DNA of 64,000 nucleotides from Escherichia coli (lineage in GTDB: Bacteria; Pseudomonadota; Gammaproteobacteria; Enterobacterales; Enterobacteriaceae). Shown in pieces: positions 1,124 through 37,667 of the stretch (the stretch's first letter is position 1; each line of letters begins with the position of its first letter). Location of the stretch: the NCBI RefSeq assembly GCF_024700885.2, contig NZ_CP117016.1; one strand, given 5' to 3'. The translations under genes and the position numbers were made by a program. Below the pieces are notes generated by a model. That model had not been told where the DNA came from. It saw only the letters and a program-made list of their open reading frames with translations, and did not search any database.

Positions 1124-2482
1124 TTACGCTACGTCTTCGTACTGCGGAACCGGATTACGGAAACTCTTGGTGACGCAAGCCAGGTAAATCAGACCGATAG
1201 CCGCCCAGATCAGACCCAGAACCATTGAGCTTTCTTCCAGGTTAACCCACAGCGCACCAACGGTCAGCGCACCACACATCGGCAGGAACAGATACTGGAA
1301 GTGATCTTTCAGCGTCTTGTTACGCTTCTCACGGATCCAGAACTGCGAGATGACCGACAGGTTAACGAAGGTGAACGCCACCAACGCACCAAAGTTGATC
1401 AGCGCTGTAGCCATTACCAGGTCGAAGTTGATTGCCAGCAAGGCAATCGCGCCAACCAGGATGATGTTCATCGCCGGAGTACGCCATTTCGGGTGTACAT
1501 AACCGAAGAAGCTTTTCGGGAATACGCCGTCACGCCCCATTACGTACATCAGACGCGCAACGCCTGCATGCGCCGCCATACCGGACGCCAGTACGGTAAT
1601 GGTGGAGAAGATCAGCGCACCAACCTGGAATGCTTTACCTGCAACATACAGCATGATTTCAGGCTGTGACGCATCCGGATCTTTAAAGCGAGAGATATCC
1701 GGGAAGTACAGCTGCAGGAAGTAAGTTGCAAAGATGAAGATCATGCCGCCAATCAGCGCGGTCAGGAAAATCGCACGCGGGATCACGCGCTCTGCATCTT
1801 TGGTTTCTTCCGACAGGTTGCTGATGCCGTCAAAGCCGGTAAAGGAGAAGCACAGGATTGTCGCCCCGGTAATCATCGGGATAACATGCGCATCGCCAGA
1901 CCAGAATGGACGAGTGCTCGCCAGCGTACCAGCGCCTTCACCTTCAAATACGCCATAAACAACCATGCCCAGAATCACCGCGATCAGCACTACCTGCAAC
2001 ACGACGATTACAGTGTTGAAGTTCGCTACGGATTTCAGACTACGCAGGTTAAAGGCGGTCATAAAGGCCACCAGCGCCACCACAAACATCCACGATGGGA
2101 TGGAAGGCACCAGAGCTTCAAAATAAATTTTCGCCAGCAGAATGTTGATCATCGGCGCGAACAGATAGTCGAGCAGAGAAGACCAACCCACCATAAAGCC
2201 GACAGTCGGGCTAATGGATTTCTGGGCGTAAGTGTATGCAGAGCCAGCAGAAGGATAGCGGCGAACCAGCTTCCCGTAGCTCAGAGCCGTAAACAGGATC
2301 GCAATCAATGCGAACGCATAGGCTGTCGGCACATGACCATCCGTGAGGCCTGAAACGATACCAAAAGTATCAAACAGCGTCATCGGCTGCATATAGGCAA
2401 GACCCATCATTACAACCGGAACTAACGTAAGCGTTTTACGCAATTCCACGCGAGAGGTGTTTGGAGTAACGTTATGCGACAT
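1124..2482 (-). CDS. plaP: Putrescine importer PlaP (APC-family amino acid/polyamine permease)
   Basis: 454-aa ORF in the track (1124..2488); start moved to the [16 protein letters not shown] methionine that I recall as the K-12 PlaP N-terminus. Confidence 0.85.
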
Positions 2483-22941: not shown

Positions 22942-23928
22942 CTATATATACCAGTTCTTAAGCAAATCATCTGTTTTTGAGGTGCCACGCTCTCCAATAC
23001 CATGTATATATGCCGAAATCAACACATATCTGTAAAGAATTGGGAAATAGAGTTTTTTATTTGCATCTGTTTTTTTTAAAAATTGTATTATTTTTTTAAA
23101 AATAAATTTATTGAAAAATATTGATTGGCATATTTTACTAAACGTTTTGTGTTTACTAAATATTTTCTCAACTAGGAATAATTTTTTATTAGTAGAAAAC
23201 ATTTCAGGCCTTACTTTGCTTAATACATTCATACCATCACGTGCTGTAGCACGAATTTTTTTTGTATATCCTTCTATATCGCCACTGTATTCGTGATGTA
23301 ATATTTTAAAATCAGCAAAAATAATTTTGAAGTCATTTTTTTCAAGTTGCCACCCAAACTCATGATCTTCACAACCATAACCAATAAAATTTTCATTATA
23401 TGAAACTATACCTGATGAAAATGCCTTTCTATCAAGAACACAATTCATTGCGACAAAAGTCCAGGCATTCATAGAGATATCAGGACTATCACTAAACTTA
23501 GGGTGTAAAGAGTTCCTGTAGCGATAGTAATTGCTGGTCTCAATGAGTTCATTTTCGAATCTAACTTCCCCACATAAAACGCTTTTACTATTCATTTTTT
23601 TTAAATAGTTCAGCAACGATGATATATATCCACTTGCGGGTATACAATCATCATCAAGAAATATTAAATAATCCCCATGGGCTAGGGATGCTCCGAAATT
23701 GCGCTTAGCGGAGAGTATATTTTTAGTATGTTGATGGATAATATTAATATTTTTCTTTTTATGAATATTATCAGCAACTACATCATCAATTTCTTTACCA
23801 CTATGACTATCGGAAACAATTACTTCTAGGTGTAGACTATTGTCTTTAGCCTGAGAATCGAGCTCAGAGAGAATCAATTCTAATTGAACTGGGCGTTTCC
23901 AAACAGATATTATTACCGAGATATTCAT
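22942..23928 (-). CDS. GT2-family glycosyltransferase
   Basis: 328-aa ORF MNISVIISVWKRPVQLELILSELDSQ... with DDD motif (YLIFLDDDCIP); 4-bp overlap with wzx. Confidence 0.7.
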   Translation of the reverse strand: MNISVIISVWKRPVQLELILSELDSQAKDNSLHLEVIVSDSHSGKEIDDVVADNIHKKKNINIIHQHTKNILSAKRNFGASLAHGDYLIFLDDDCIPASGYISSLLNYLKKMNSKSVLCGEVRFENELIETSNYYRYRNSLHPKFSDSPDISMNAWTFVAMNCVLDRKAFSSGIVSYNENFIGYGCEDHEFGWQLEKNDFKIIFADFKILHHEYSGDIEGYTKKIRATARDGMNVLSKVRPEMFSTNKKLFLVEKIFSKHKTFSKICQSIFFNKFIFKKIIQFLKKTDANKKLYFPILYRYVLISAYIHGIGERGTSKTDDLLKNWYI

Positions 23929-25169
23929 AATTTATGAGGCCTACATACGGTTTTATTTACTTTAATGAATTGTTTAAGCATTCCCATGCCAACGAAAATT
24001 TCAGCTACAATAAGACTCACAATCGCACCCGTTGCTCCATAATATTTACATGCTGGATAAACTATGCTTAAACAAGTAATAGTTCCTAGGAAAATAGATT
24101 TGAAATACTGTTTTTGCATCCCATTAGGTACTAATACAAGTAACCCGACAACTGTATTAAAACCTATGAATATAGGAAGCAATGTCATTAATTGCATTGC
24201 ACCTGCAATTACTTCACCTTTCATGCCGAATATTAATAATGATAATTGGTTGGCAAAAAGTAAAAATGGTATTGCTAAAGCCATGTAAAAAACAAGCAAG
24301 TATTTAAGAATCATTCTAGATTTTAAGTTTGCAATATATGGATTCTCTCTTTGCAAAATGTTAATTCTTGGATAAAAAGCTTGGACTAATGGTGATGCAA
24401 GTCCAGCCAAACCTTGTTTGATCATGTTAGCTGAGTTAAAGATGCCTACATCAAACTTTCCAGATACGCCACCCAATACAAGAGGGGTCAACATTGTGTA
24501 TGCACTAGTCGCAAGTGTTGAACAAAAAAAATGAAATCCATTTTTTAAAATTACTTGAATTTTCTTTATCGGTGGCCTACATAAAAAAATCTCCTTGATA
24601 ATAAGTAAGTAGGCAACGCCACAGAATGAATACAAAATATATGGCATGCTCAATAATAAGGCACTGATGTACATCGGCGTTGCGGGTTTTATAATTAGAT
24701 AAACTGCAACGACTGCTATGCCTCGTGAAAATAGTGACAGCACAGCCATCACACTCATCATTTCCTTACCTTGCAAAAACCAATTTGGATTGAAAACACC
24801 TGCAATTACGGACAGAAAACCAACACATAACAAAGACTTAACGTCGTTAAAAACATAAAAAAAACAGAGTATTATGAGTATTATAGCTGCAATTAGCATT
24901 AATATAAAACGAGCAAGCACCACACCGCAAAAAAATTCAGAATGGTATTTTTTATCGTTATTTAGTGCTATTTCTCTTGTCCCACTATATCCAAAACCAT
25001 ATTCAACAACCATTAACAACACTTGTATAGTTATCAATGAAAAACTCAGATCACCAAAATTCGATACACCAATGACTCTAACAAGATAAGGAAAAATTAA
25101 TAATGGCAGTAGGTAATTGGCACCCTGACTTATTGCAAGGTAAAGAACATTTAGTTTAGTTTTGCTCAA
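23925..25169 (-). CDS. wzx: O-antigen flippase
   Basis: 414-aa multi-pass membrane ORF MSKTKLNVLYLAISQGANYLLPLLIFPYLVRVIGVSNFGDL... (polysaccharide biosynthesis/MOP-type N-terminus). Confidence 0.7.
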   Translation of the reverse strand: MSKTKLNVLYLAISQGANYLLPLLIFPYLVRVIGVSNFGDLSFSLITIQVLLMVVEYGFGYSGTREIALNNDKKYHSEFFCGVVLARFILMLIAAIILIILCFFYVFNDVKSLLCVGFLSVIAGVFNPNWFLQGKEMMSVMAVLSLFSRGIAVVAVYLIIKPATPMYISALLLSMPYILYSFCGVAYLLIIKEIFLCRPPIKKIQVILKNGFHFFCSTLATSAYTMLTPLVLGGVSGKFDVGIFNSANMIKQGLAGLASPLVQAFYPRINILQRENPYIANLKSRMILKYLLVFYMALAIPFLLFANQLSLLIFGMKGEVIAGAMQLMTLLPIFIGFNTVVGLLVLVPNGMQKQYFKSIFLGTITCLSIVYPACKYYGATGAIVSLIVAEIFVGMGMLKQFIKVNKTVCRPHKL

Positions 25170-25247
25170 TGAAGTGCCCCATATACAACAGATATCATTC
25201 GAGTAACTTATTCACATGAATCAATAAGTTGTTTATTCAGGGCAAGA

Positions 25248-26321
25248 TTACGAAAGCCCGCTCCCCGCAAGAACTGACGCCAGATAGTTTCTGTCCATGG
25301 CTGCTTTTCGCATCTTACGTCTTAACCCTGCCTTGAATACCTTATCATTCGTCAAAATATTAATAGCAATGTGCCGTATCCCTGAAAATAAATCTGCTGC
25401 ATTTCCTCTTCTTATTTTGCAGTCGTCTTCATTCATTACCACGTCCAGACGCCAGTGCAGCTTATTCTCCACGTGCCAGTGGTTTCGGATTGCTGTGGCG
25501 AACTTCTCTGCGGTTAAATCAGCAGAACTGATATAATATCTGACCGTCATTTCTGGCTCTTTCTTTTGTTCTGCTATTATTGACCGAAAGGAGACTGCCA
25601 CGCATAATTTCTTCAGACCTTTCCATTCAAACGTGAAATCAAAAAGTTCATCAGGGACATCGCAAACAATATGAAGACGGATTTCGTCTCTGCCGTGACT
25701 CTTTTCACTCATTGCGTAACTGTCATGCTCTGGATTATTTAATTCTTTCAGTGGAAATTTTTCCTCAAAGGCTTTATTAAGCCGCCCCTGATTTCCTTTT
25801 ACAGCGAATAAATAATCACCGCCCTGTTTTTGTATCTTCTCTGCAATATCTTTCTGGCAACCCATCGCATCAGTTGTGATGATTTTTCCTTTAATATCCA
25901 GCATGTTAAGAAGTTCAGGGATAGCTGTAATTTCATTGGATTTCTCATCCGTCCTGATCTGTCCGATGACCAGACTGTGCATTGTTGAGAACGCACTAAT
26001 GACATGAATCGCTCCCTTGCGGCGACTCTTGTCATAAGAATGCCGGAGTGTTTTTCCATCAATTGCGATGAAGTCTTTATCATCTGAAGAATGGCAGTCA
26101 CGCATCCAGTTAATAAAGCACTCGTGAAATTTTGCAGGACTGATACAGGATACAACTCTGGCAATGGTATCGTGAACAGGAATACCATTTTCAAAATCAC
26201 CATATTGCTTCAAAAAATCGAGATGTGTTTCCCCAAAATCCTCTATATCTTCCCAGCCTTCTGCACCCGAAATAACGGCACAAATAGTCAACAGTAGAAT
26301 ATCCGACAATTTATGTTCCAC
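25248..26321 (-). pseudogene. ISAs1-family (H-repeat-associated) transposase, outer copy, N-terminal ~20 codons separated by the nested insertion
   Basis: 357-aa ORF beginning [11 protein letters not shown] aligns to residue 22 onward of the 378-aa inner-copy ORF; roughly 15 substitutions by eye. Confidence 0.7.
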
Positions 26322-26344
26322 TTTCCAGGCTTGTCAGGGAAAGA

Positions 26345-27481
26345 TTACGAAAGCCCGCACCCCGCAAGGACTGACGCCAGATAGTTTCTGTCCATGGCTG
26401 CTTTTCGCATCTTACGTCTTAACCCTGCCTTGAATACCTTATCATTCGTCAAAATATTAATAGCGATGTGCCGTATCCCTGAAAATAATTCTGCTGCATT
26501 TCCTCTTCTTATTTTGCAGTCGTCTTCATTCATTACCACGTCCAGACGCCAGTGCAGCTTATTCTCCACGTGCCAGTGATTTCGGATCGCTGTGGCGAAC
26601 TTTTCTGCGGTTAAATCAGCAGAACTGATATAATATCTGACCGTCATTTCTAGCTCTTTCTTTTGTTCTGCTATTATGGACCGAAAGGAGACTGCCACGC
26701 ATAATTTCTTCAGTCCTTTCCATTCAAACGTGAAACCAATAAGTTCATCAGGGACATCGCAAACAATATGAAGACGGATTTCTTCTCTGCCGTGATTTTT
26801 TTCACTAATTGCGTAACTGTCATGCTCTGGATTATTTAATTCTTTCAGTGGAAATTTTTCCTCAAAGGCTTTATTAAGCCGCCCCTGATTTCCTTTTACA
26901 GTGAATAAATAATCACCGCCCTGTTTTTGTATCTTCTCTGCAATATCTTTCTGGCAACCCATCGCATCAGTTGTGATGATTTTTCCTTTAATATCCAGCA
27001 TGTTAAGAAGTTCAGGGATAGCTGTAATGTCATTGGATTTCTCATCCGTCCTGATCTGTCCGTTGACCAGACTGTGCATTGTTGAGAACGCACTAATGAC
27101 ATGAATCGCTCCCCTGCGGCGACTCTTGTCATAAGAATGCCGGAGTGTTTTTCCATCAATTGCGATGACGTCTTTATCATCTGAAGTATGGCAATCTCGC
27201 ATCCAGTTAATAAAGCACTCGTGAAATTTTGCAGGACTGATACAGGATACAACTCTGGCGATGGTATCGTGAACAGGAATACCATTTTCAATATCACCGT
27301 ATTGTTTTAAAAAATCGAGATGTGTTTCCCCAAAATCCTCTATATCTTCCCAACCTTCTGCACCAGAAATAACGGCACAAATAGTCAACAGTAGAATATC
27401 CGATAATTTATGTTCCACTTTCCAGGCTTGTCTGTAATCGGGGATAATAGAAATATGTTCCATCAATTTTTTAAGTTCCAT
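26345..27481 (-). CDS. ISAs1-family (H-repeat-associated) transposase, intact inner copy
   Basis: 378-aa [66 protein letters not shown]..., recognised as the E. coli H-repeat protein family (YhhI-like). Confidence 0.85.
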
Positions 27482-27834
27482 TTTGTTCTCCTTAATTATG
27501 TAAGGAGTATTTGATCATGTATAAGCAATAAAAAACAGCTTTATGTAATGAGGAATATCTCAATTTTTAAACATAAAATGCGAATTGTTTAGTACAAAAA
27601 AGCAGCATTACGTGATCTTTCCCTGCCAGGCTTGTCTGTAATCGGGAATAACAGAAATATGTTCCATCAATTTTTTAAGTTCCATTTTGTTCTCCTTATT
27701 TAAGCAAGGAGTATTTGATCATATATAAGCTGTGAAAAACAGTTTTAGGTAATGAGGGATATCTCAATTTTTGAACATAAAATGCGAATTATTTAGTACA
27801 AAAAGTGTACTTCTGATAATCTTTCCCTGCCCCT

Positions 27835-27878
27835 AGACACGCTACCGCCCCTGGCTTTACAGCTACCAGAGCACTGCA
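27835..27878 (-). promoter_or_regulatory. JUMPstart element with ops site (RfaH loading site) for the O-antigen operon
   Basis: + strand cacgctaccgcc at 27838..27849 is the reverse complement of the ops consensus GGCGGTAGCGTG; the surrounding ~40 bp closely match the copy upstream of wza. Confidence 0.8.
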
Positions 27879-28134
27879 TGCATGCCTACGATGTAGCGAG
27901 CGTTACCCACTCGCGCTAAACCCGAAAAATTCAAACGCTAATTGTCTTACCAATCCGCTCTGGAAACAAGGAAAATCCTGGAAAACTTTGACTAAAATCC
28001 TATTGCTAACTCGTTGTTATTCTGATTGTTTATATAAAACAACGGCAGGAAAATTCGCAGCAAATTACTTTCGCCACGAATCTTCACTGCCGTTATAATT
28101 TTCTTATCAACCGTTACATTCGGTCAGATTTTCA

Positions 28135-29028
28135 TTATTCGCTTAACAGCTTCTCAATCCCTTTACGGAACTTCGCCCCTTCTTTCAGGTTGCGTAGTCC
28201 ATACTTCACAAATGCCTGCATATACCCCATTTTTTTACCGCAGTCGTAGCTGTCACCTGTCATCAGCATGGCATCAACGGACTGTTTTTTCGCCAGTTCA
28301 GCGATGGCATCAGTCAGCTGAATACGCCCCCATGCACCAGGCTGAGTGCGTTCAAGTTCCGGCCAAATATCTGCAGAAAGCACATAGCGACCAACGGCCA
28401 TGATGTCTGAGTCCAGCGTCTGCGGCTGATCCGGTTTTTCGATGAATTCAACAATGCGGCTGACTTTACCTTCACGGTCCAGTGGTTCTTTGGTCTGGAT
28501 GACCGAGTATTCAGAGAGGTCACCCGGCATACGTTTTGCCAGCACCTGGCTACGGCCCGTTTCATTGAAACGCGCAATCATGGCAGCAAGGTTGTAGCGC
28601 AGCGGGTCGGCACTGGCGTCGTCGATCACAACGTCCGGCAGTACCACGACAAATGGATTGTCACCAATGGCGGGTCGTGCACACAAAATGGAGTGGCCTA
28701 AACCTAAAGGTTCGCCCTGACGCACGTTCATAATGGTCACGCCCGGCGGACAGATGGACTGCACTTCCGCCAGTAGTTGACGCTTCACGCGCTGTTCAAG
28801 GAGAGATTCTAATTCATAAGAGGTGTCGAAGTGGTTTTCGACCGCGTTCTTGGACGCGTGAGTTACCAGGAGGATTTCTTTGATCCCTGCAGCCACAATC
28901 TCGTCAACGATGTACTGAATCATTGGCTTGTCGACGATCGGTAGCATCTCTTTGGGAATCGCCTTAGTGGCAGGCAACATATGCATCCCAAGACCCGCTA
29001 CAGGAATAACTGCTTTTAAATTCGTCAT
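28135..29028 (-). CDS. galF: UTP--glucose-1-phosphate uridylyltransferase-like regulatory subunit GalF
   Basis: Track ORF 28135..29040; start trimmed to [45 protein letters not shown]. Confidence 0.9.
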
Positions 29029-37566: not shown

Positions 37567-37667
37567 ATCGTTACCCTTTTTCAGGCAATAGTTGGCCCTG
37601 ACCGAAACGGCCAATTTTGTTTTTGTCGTTATTTACCGGAGAATTAATCCAGTTGATTATTCAACGG

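Follow-up and report, generated by a model that had tools for sequence, protein, structure and literature searches.

The leader of the O15-type O-antigen operon in the Escherichia coli DNA analysed here (a window of 64 kb, by which we mean the whole stretch) contains two copies of the ISAs1-family element ISEc1, of which the inner one moved into the outer one by transposition. Across the O15 clusters sampled, the outer copy is fixed; the inner copy was added in one lineage. The nested leader is a standard, long-established O15 architecture that is annotated in RefSeq; it is already known and is not a new disruption. The explanation that best accounts for the locus as a whole, and that we consider probably correct, combines nested ISEc1 copies, an ancestral outer copy and expression by read-through of polymerase loaded with RfaH. 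In this explanation, the outer IS would be an ancestral part of the O15 cluster that is fixed in it, and the inner IS would be a later insertion marking one allelic lineage. Our own additions are small: the outer IS is universal in O15 as sampled, the cluster occurs as alleles with a single and with a nested IS, and O15 and O3 have in common a short stub downstream of ops.

By its flanking genes, the O-antigen locus on the minus strand of the window is of the E. coli O15 type (Table 1). An O15-type wzx and wzy are present between galF and gnd, and the gene order is wzx, a family-2 glycosyltransferase gene, wzy (encoding a wzy-like membrane protein), fnlA, fnlB, fnlC, wbuB, wbuC and gnd. Among the matches listed, wzx is 99.6-100% identical to genes annotated as 'O15 family O-antigen flippase', and a gene neighbouring wzx bears the annotation O15 family polymerase. 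In an identical genome (MLI114), PGAP places the start of wzx at the same position. Upstream of the operon, the 39-nt JUMPstart element has ops, read as GGCGGTAGnnTG, on the non-template strand of the operon, i.e. on the strand of wzx; exact copies of ops occur twice in the window as compared to 0.11 expected by chance. The conserved galF-rfb intergenic region is presumably the site of the O-antigen promoter. The distance from ops to wzx is 2,668 nt and decreases to 76 nt once the IS block is removed. The 68-nt leader immediately upstream of wzx has the same sequence in genomes with a single IS and in genomes with the nested form, and it matches O15 genomes only.

Table 1. Features of the interval from galF to wzx in window coordinates, listed from galF towards wzx.
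Feature	Position	Strand	Basis or remark
galF	28135..29028	-	Last conserved gene before the O-antigen operon; PGAP of identical genome MLI114, Pfam NTP_transferase
galF-rfb intergenic region, conserved	27877..28134	-	95-99% identity in most of ~4,000 E. coli genomes of other O types
JUMPstart	27838..27876	-	Rfam RF01707, 60 bits, E 1.5e-11, gathering score 35
ops, GGCGGTAGCGTG	27838..27849	-	Exact match, within JUMPstart
ops-to-IS spacer, TCTAGGGG	27830..27837	-	8 nt; direct reading
IS block	25238..27829	-	2,592 bp; two 1,291-bp ISAs1-family (ISEc1, H-repeat) elements
Outer ISAs1/ISEc1, left part	27626..27829	-	204 bp; IRL CAGGGAAAGATTA and first 20 transposase codons
Predicted hairpin, outer IS	27692..27711	-	Equivalent of the inner-IS hairpin; predicted folds
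Outer-transposase stub ORF	27685..27608	-	25 codons; stop codon lies within the inner IS
Target-site duplication, ACAAGCCTGG	left 27626..27635, right 26325..26334	-	10 bp; direct reading
Inner ISAs1/ISEc1, complete	26335..27625	-	1,291 bp; terminal inverted repeats CAGGGAAAGAT
Predicted hairpin CUCCUUA-N6-UAAGGAG, inner IS	27488..27507	-	Pairs the transposase Shine-Dalgarno sequence; inverted repeat, predicted folds
Inner transposase gene, intact	26345..27481	-	378 aa; Pfam DDE_Tnp_1_assoc and DDE_Tnp_1
Outer ISAs1/ISEc1, right part	25238..26334	-	1,097 bp; transposase remnant and IRR
Outer transposase remnant, without N-terminus	25248..26333	-	PGAP 'incomplete; missing N-terminus'
AT-rich spacer, IS right end to wzx start	25170..25237	-	68 nt; O15-specific DNA starts here
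wzx, O15 flippase	23925..25169	-	First gene of the operon; 414 aa, TTG start

The window has exactly four IS ends (27829, 27625, 26335 and 25238), and their order is that of one element inside another. The inner IS interrupts the outer transposase gene after approximately codon 20, and removal of the inner copy together with one ACAAGCCTGG from the outer IS leaves an element of 1,291 bp with an uninterrupted ORF of 378 aa. The inner IS is flanked by the 10-bp duplication of ACAAGCCTGG, which may also be read as a duplication of 8 bp around an IS that is 2 nt longer. By contrast, no target duplication is present at the outer IS, which is flanked by TCTAGGGG and AATAAACAAC. The two copies differ at 58 of 1,291 positions (95.5% identity); because they are only this similar, we conclude that the inner IS derived from another genomic copy. 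Inner IS, outer IS and wzx have one common orientation. The two copies are nested with zero passenger DNA between them and, thus, do not form a composite transposon.

The assignment to the ISAs1 family holds for both copies. DDE_Tnp_1_assoc and DDE_Tnp_1 domains are detected over both transposase ORFs with E-values from 1e-27 to 2e-33 (2e-33 and 1.6e-29 for the inner transposase, with the same domains in the outer remnant), and the intact protein has 378 aa. Both elements have a size of 1,291 bp, within the range of ~1.2-1.5 kb of the family, and have short inverted repeats of the form CAGGGAAAGAT(T/C)A, in which 11-13 of the first 14 positions match. PGAP labels the genes 'ISAs1 family transposase' and, in ATCC 8739 and B-2207, 'ISAs1-like element ISEc1 family'. 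The exact inner transposase protein is found on 98 public contigs, and the names of its protein clusters agree with ISAs1/ISEc1. The initial annotation had described a nested IS block of ~2.6 kb, oriented like the operon, between ops and wzx, and the four IS ends, the ORFs, the Rfam match and the PGAP annotation confirm this description. The span given for it (25170-27878) does contain the block; however, the block proper is shorter, and the remainder of the span consists of the 68- and 8-nt spacers and JUMPstart. Similarly, of the two transposase genes through which transcription was said to read, both exist as ORFs but the inner one alone is intact, the outer one being split.

To what extent is this arrangement specific to the window? 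We surveyed 5,426 complete E. coli genomes with junction-specific queries. O15 wzx is present in 99 of these genomes (60 of which are listed, at 99.6-100% identity), and the junction between ops and the IS at exactly this position is present in 99. The nested junction between inner and outer IS was found in 62 of the 5,426 genomes, and in ~35 only one IS occupies this site. A synthetic empty site, in which ops and the following 8 nt are joined to the 68-nt wzx leader, had no match in the 5,426 genomes; nor did we find a case among them in which the O15 flanks lie close together without an IS. The locus had initially been considered notable as an insertion that could have changed O-antigen expression or its RfaH dependence relative to strains of the same O type without it, and a comparison with such strains had been suggested. 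With 99 wzx genes, 99 junctions and no empty site, the first idea does not hold, and no insertion-free O15 strain was found for the second; instead, the natural contrast is between genomes with one IS and genomes with the nested form.

The single-IS form was checked in M160133, in which an IS of 1,291 bp with an intact transposase gene is present at the identical site with identical flanks; its identity to the outer copy, as reconstructed from the nested form, is 98.1%. In the nested genomes listed, wzx is 99.8-100% identical to that of the window; in listed genomes in which the ops-IS junction is 98.8% identical, with M160133 as the one checked to be single-IS, wzx is ~99.6-99.7% identical. 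Because wzx identity and ops-IS junction identity differ together, we conclude that there are two alleles of the O15 cluster. The exact 41-nt pattern of the wzx leader had no match in contigs representing one genome per species and matched one contig, with the single-IS form, in JGI metagenomes. The genomic contexts of the exact Wzx protein are either nested or on contigs broken in the IS, and all long contexts are nested. The 62 complete genomes with the nested form come from humans, livestock, birds and water; one strain was deposited as O15:H18, and the capsulated strain M12 also has the nested form. In 171 genomes, the block was matched at a coverage of at least 80%, and these were considered as further nested blocks in other O types; this interpretation was rejected because same-strand ISAs1 copies within ~2 kb of galF make it a better explanation that the search joined separate pieces. 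Apart from O15 and O3, roughly 50 genomes have an ISAs1 copy this close to galF.

Individual genomes deviate locally from these two forms. B-2207 has a deletion of 168 bp within the outer remnant, and in PKF4, which belongs to the nested lineage, a deletion extends from the outer IS into wzx. In some other genomes of the nested lineage, IS1 is inserted in or replaces fnlA, or the glycosyltransferase gene or wzy is disrupted.

The outer IS is probably a relic of an IS-mediated event by which the O15 module was assembled or imported, as judged from its sequence context, i.e. because it lacks a target duplication and is positioned at the boundary between the conserved backbone and the O15-specific DNA of low GC content. 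Directly downstream of the IS, the GC content drops to ~0.32. In most of the other O types listed, homology with the galF-rfb region extends precisely to the final base of ops (query position 297) and no further. By analogy, this pattern fits the role in O-antigen cluster assembly that the Reeves laboratory has put forward for H-repeat elements, as in Salmonella group D2, in which an H-repeat remnant at a recombination joint is the proposed mediator of cluster assembly (PMC3715488). In D2 as in O15, an IS of the same family is present in the rfb cluster at a boundary between DNAs of different origin. However, in O15 the IS is full-length (and intact in the single-IS lineage) and located in the 5' leader 8 nt past ops rather than in an intergenic position, and in one lineage a second copy is nested inside it. 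For E. coli, an IS sequence in the O15 locus was mentioned for NCTC 86 in comparison with the reference strain G1201 (PMC5382810), and the O15 IS is not specifically discussed in the surveys Iguchi 2015, DebRoy 2016 and Liu 2020.

A related arrangement is found in the O3-type cluster of SLK172, the junction of which is present in 22 genomes. As in O15, ops is followed by the 8-nt TCTAGGGG, ISAs1-type ends and a co-oriented ISAs1 copy that precedes the O-specific genes. Different from O15, an extra segment of ~88 nt, which adjoins other ISAs1 copies elsewhere in E. coli, separates the first ISAs1-type end from the ISAs1 copy, this copy is degenerate (it is frameshifted and its right end has decayed), and the O3 genes downstream are unrelated. 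Because O15 and O3 have in common the stub after ops followed by ISAs1, and because the O15 IS is without target duplication, the ISAs1 ends at ops might mark an old joint that was reused for swapping O-antigen modules, and the alleles with one and two IS copies might set different O-antigen levels or a different dependence on RfaH or Rho. We offer this reading only tentatively and regard it as possible but doubtful. If it were true, the one-IS and two-IS alleles would amount to a natural allelic series with which to gauge the length of untranslated foreign RNA that a polymerase carrying RfaH can cross.

Given that ops is far upstream of wzx, transcription of the O15 operon has two options, to pass through the IS block or to begin within it; on this structural point, the interpretation in the initial annotation holds. 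Once recruited at ops, RfaH remains bound over the full length of the operon, keeps NusG out and blocks Rho, and it increases rfb expression ~300-fold (PMC5449661). From the layout of the leader, we suggest that read-through with RfaH from the conserved promoter is the likeliest route of O15 expression. In this model, transcription would start at the promoter upstream of JUMPstart, RfaH would load at the intact ops, and the RfaH-modified, Rho-resistant polymerase would cross the IS DNA, which measures 1.3 kb in the single and 2.6 kb in the nested form, into wzx. The tolerance towards the IS copies would then be the same as the one that RfaH gives to other long, poorly translated operons. Read-through is favoured because ops and JUMPstart are intact, and because there is no downstream ops, no convincing IS promoter and no strong terminator. 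Specifically, we found no second ops-like site between the IS and wzx and no strong terminator on the sense strand, on which a single weak terminator-like hairpin was detected. Moreover, the sense RNA of the block contains more G (581) than C (455) and has no C-rich window among 50, which argues that it would be a poor substrate for Rho loading.

Two features of the block may work against read-through by raising the exposure of the transcript to Rho. Firstly, ~1.1 kb of outer remnant may be untranslated in the nested form. Secondly, a hairpin that pairs the Shine-Dalgarno sequence of the transposase gene is predicted in the minimum-free-energy and the centroid folds of both IS copies. If these hairpins formed on read-through RNA, they would, speculatively, limit translation of the transposase from the operon transcript, and by blocking this translation they may leave more of the RNA accessible to Rho. 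In that case, the anti-Rho activity of RfaH would, again speculatively, matter more.

Known RfaH-type systems are similar to the O15 leader in part. In alpha-haemolysin plasmids, the gap between hlyR, which has ops, and hlyC contains nothing, IS2, or IS1 and IS2, and hlyA transcription is strong with each of these arrangements (PMC2918590), which makes them a direct precedent. Thus, as in O15, one or two IS copies are located between a leader with ops and the first gene of an RfaH-type operon; however, in the hly plasmids the copies belong to the IS1 and IS2 families and lie side by side, and IS-free alleles are known for hly and not for O15. The group 3 (K96) capsule locus of M12 has its ops 1,473 bp ahead of kpsD, and its expression is RfaH-dependent (PMC13410964). 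Because ops works at this distance, distance itself is no barrier. This leader is in a different locus and, unlike that of O15, contains a kpsM fragment and a hypothetical gene and no IS. In the capsule screen of M12, transposon insertions that hit 'ybfL' and 'rbfX' were considered as a sign of expression of the IS-wzx region and rejected, because complementation failed in the non-kps mutants and because the paper also covers spontaneous capsule loss.

Alternatively, a promoter borne by the IS copies, either a transposase promoter or a hybrid site at the inner/outer joint, could drive the O15 operon independently of ops and RfaH. We consider this unlikely. Two candidate sites on the sense strand would fit such a scenario, i.e. 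TATACA-17-CATAAT (27523..27495), which closely precedes the inner transposase gene, and CTGACA-18-TAAATT (26337..26308) across the joint between inner and outer IS; there is no strong terminator between the transposase genes and wzx, and for the hly plasmids it has been discussed that IS elements activate the genes that follow them (PMC2918590). However, with 11 promoter-like sites the block is near the expectation from shuffled sequence (9.1 +/- 2.8), although simple promoter scans of this kind also miss the known O-antigen promoter region and so leave room for IS-borne promoters. No convincing promoter was found near the right end of the IS, the best site within 230 nt of wzx scoring poorly, and the hybrid site is absent from the single-IS form, which is likewise O15. 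In addition, transcripts that start downstream of ops would lack RfaH and be exposed to Rho across an AT-rich operon of 9 kb, and ops and JUMPstart are perfectly conserved.

As a second alternative, the inner insertion might be polar, in which case strains with the nested form would make little or no O15 antigen and be functionally rough or semi-rough. Nesting adds 1.3 kb and leaves the outer remnant probably untranslated. In M12, the O15 cluster did not give a capsule mutant protection against human serum, and the authors speculate that the LPS might be rough (PMC13410964); decayed variants also occur in the nested lineage (the wzx deletion in PKF4, IS1 at fnlA, and the disruptions in the glycosyltransferase gene or wzy). 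Nevertheless, 62 complete genomes from varied sources have the nested form, and the genes downstream, where listed, are intact with 99.8-100% identity. A silent AT-rich operon of 9 kb would be unlikely to stay so well conserved, and polarity of precisely this type is known to be suppressed by RfaH (PMC5449661). P4-NR (O15:H21H54) was smooth in the acriflavine test, and a rough variant arose on subculture (PMC7294653). Because O15 strains can be serotyped and at least one, P4-NR, which may have either allele, is smooth, the IS arrangement is compatible with O-antigen production. Altogether, we regard polarity of the inner insertion as improbable. Finally, a recent strain-specific transposition or an assembly duplication without wider significance, which might be considered because IS copies are frequent (a median of six ISAs1-matching places per genome) and repeats are prone to mis-assembly, is refuted by the identity of the nested junction in 62 and the presence of the ops-IS junction in 99 independent complete genomes and by the 58 differences between two copies that are merely 95.5% identical.

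Earlier work has documented both the presence of H-repeat elements in O-antigen clusters and that of IS elements past ops. With expression by RfaH-loaded read-through as the preferred explanation, the O15 leader is an example of how antitermination of the RfaH type allows horizontally acquired operons to accommodate mobile DNA in their leaders. The two alleles make O15 a natural comparison of 1.3 and 2.6 kb of IS DNA in clinically relevant lineages, e.g. ST69 O15:H18. Lastly, adjacent deletions arising from an IS beside wzx could plausibly convert smooth strains into rough ones; a deletion of this kind is present in PKF4.

The outer IS of the nested allele (within the block at 25238..27829 in the window) and the IS of the single-IS lineage, represented by strain M160133 (L002 1441..2731), differ at 24 of 1,291 nt (1.9%), and these codon differences comprise 15 synonymous and nine non-synonymous changes. 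By contrast, wzx, which adjoins the IS, has diverged by only ~0.3%. Gene conversion between the IS and ISAs1 copies elsewhere in the genome may account for its excess divergence over wzx, as may relaxed constraint. The single-IS O15 cluster is also present on metagenome contig OCAS01000021.1 (L005), in which the first G of ops is replaced by A (AGCGGTAGCGTG; 2010..2030).

The nested allele itself occurs in several decayed forms. In B-2207, 168 bp are deleted from the outer transposase remnant and, as judged by coordinates, the same deletion is present in the NCTC 86 genome (LT601384). In PKF4, a deletion spans from the outer IS into wzx and has removed ~840 nt of this gene. Among the other decayed genomes (L009, L011, L012 and L016), IS1 lies in or replaces fnlA, or a glycosyltransferase gene or wzy is disrupted. 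For NCTC 86, the O15 locus was said in the genome paper to have lost wzx and wbuS (PMC5382810). This statement contrasts with a match to wzx in NZ_LT601384.1 (828241..829552) that covers the query from end to end with 99.8% identity (1,312/1,313 nt), possibly with a 1-nt indel.

The 8 nt following ops in the O15 cluster, TCTAGGGG, are shared with the O3-type cluster of SLK172 (L003 4286..5700; ops GGCGGTAGCGTA). In SLK172, an ISAs1-like end comes after these 8 nt, and a segment of ~88 nt and a frameshifted, co-oriented copy of ISAs1 then precede the O3 genes. In the set of 5,426 complete E. coli genomes, a same-strand ISAs1 copy lies within ~2 kb of the galF end in ~72 non-O15 genomes, 22 of which have the O3-type junction of SLK172, leaving ~50. 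The ~88-nt segment occurs in ~2,300 genomes at 87-90% identity and, in HeN100 for instance, adjoins an ISAs1 copy near yafV.

Additional RNA elements and promoter-like sites in the window are listed in the table. The second JUMPstart/ops presumably serves as leader to the wza-wca operon for colanic acid, upstream of galF.

RNA elements and promoter-like site in the window
Feature	Position	Strand	Description
Second JUMPstart/ops	52007..52045	(-)	Rfam, 57.3 bits; exact GGCGGTAGCGTG
algC RNA motif	37571..37620	(-)	Rfam, 78 bits; within colanic acid gene region
Shine-Dalgarno hairpin, inner IS	27488..27507	(-)	
Shine-Dalgarno hairpin, outer IS	27692..27711	(-)	
CTGACA-18-TAAATT	26308..26337	(-)	Best promoter-like match of the region

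The best promoter-like match is formed where the right end of the inner IS meets outer IS sequence and is found only in the nested allele. In the inner IS, a promoter-like -10 hexamer (CATAAT) sits in the loop of a hairpin, CUCCUU(A/G)-N6-UAAGGAG, that is kept in both IS copies and pairs the Shine-Dalgarno sequence of the transposase. This hairpin may guard against activation through read-through transcription.
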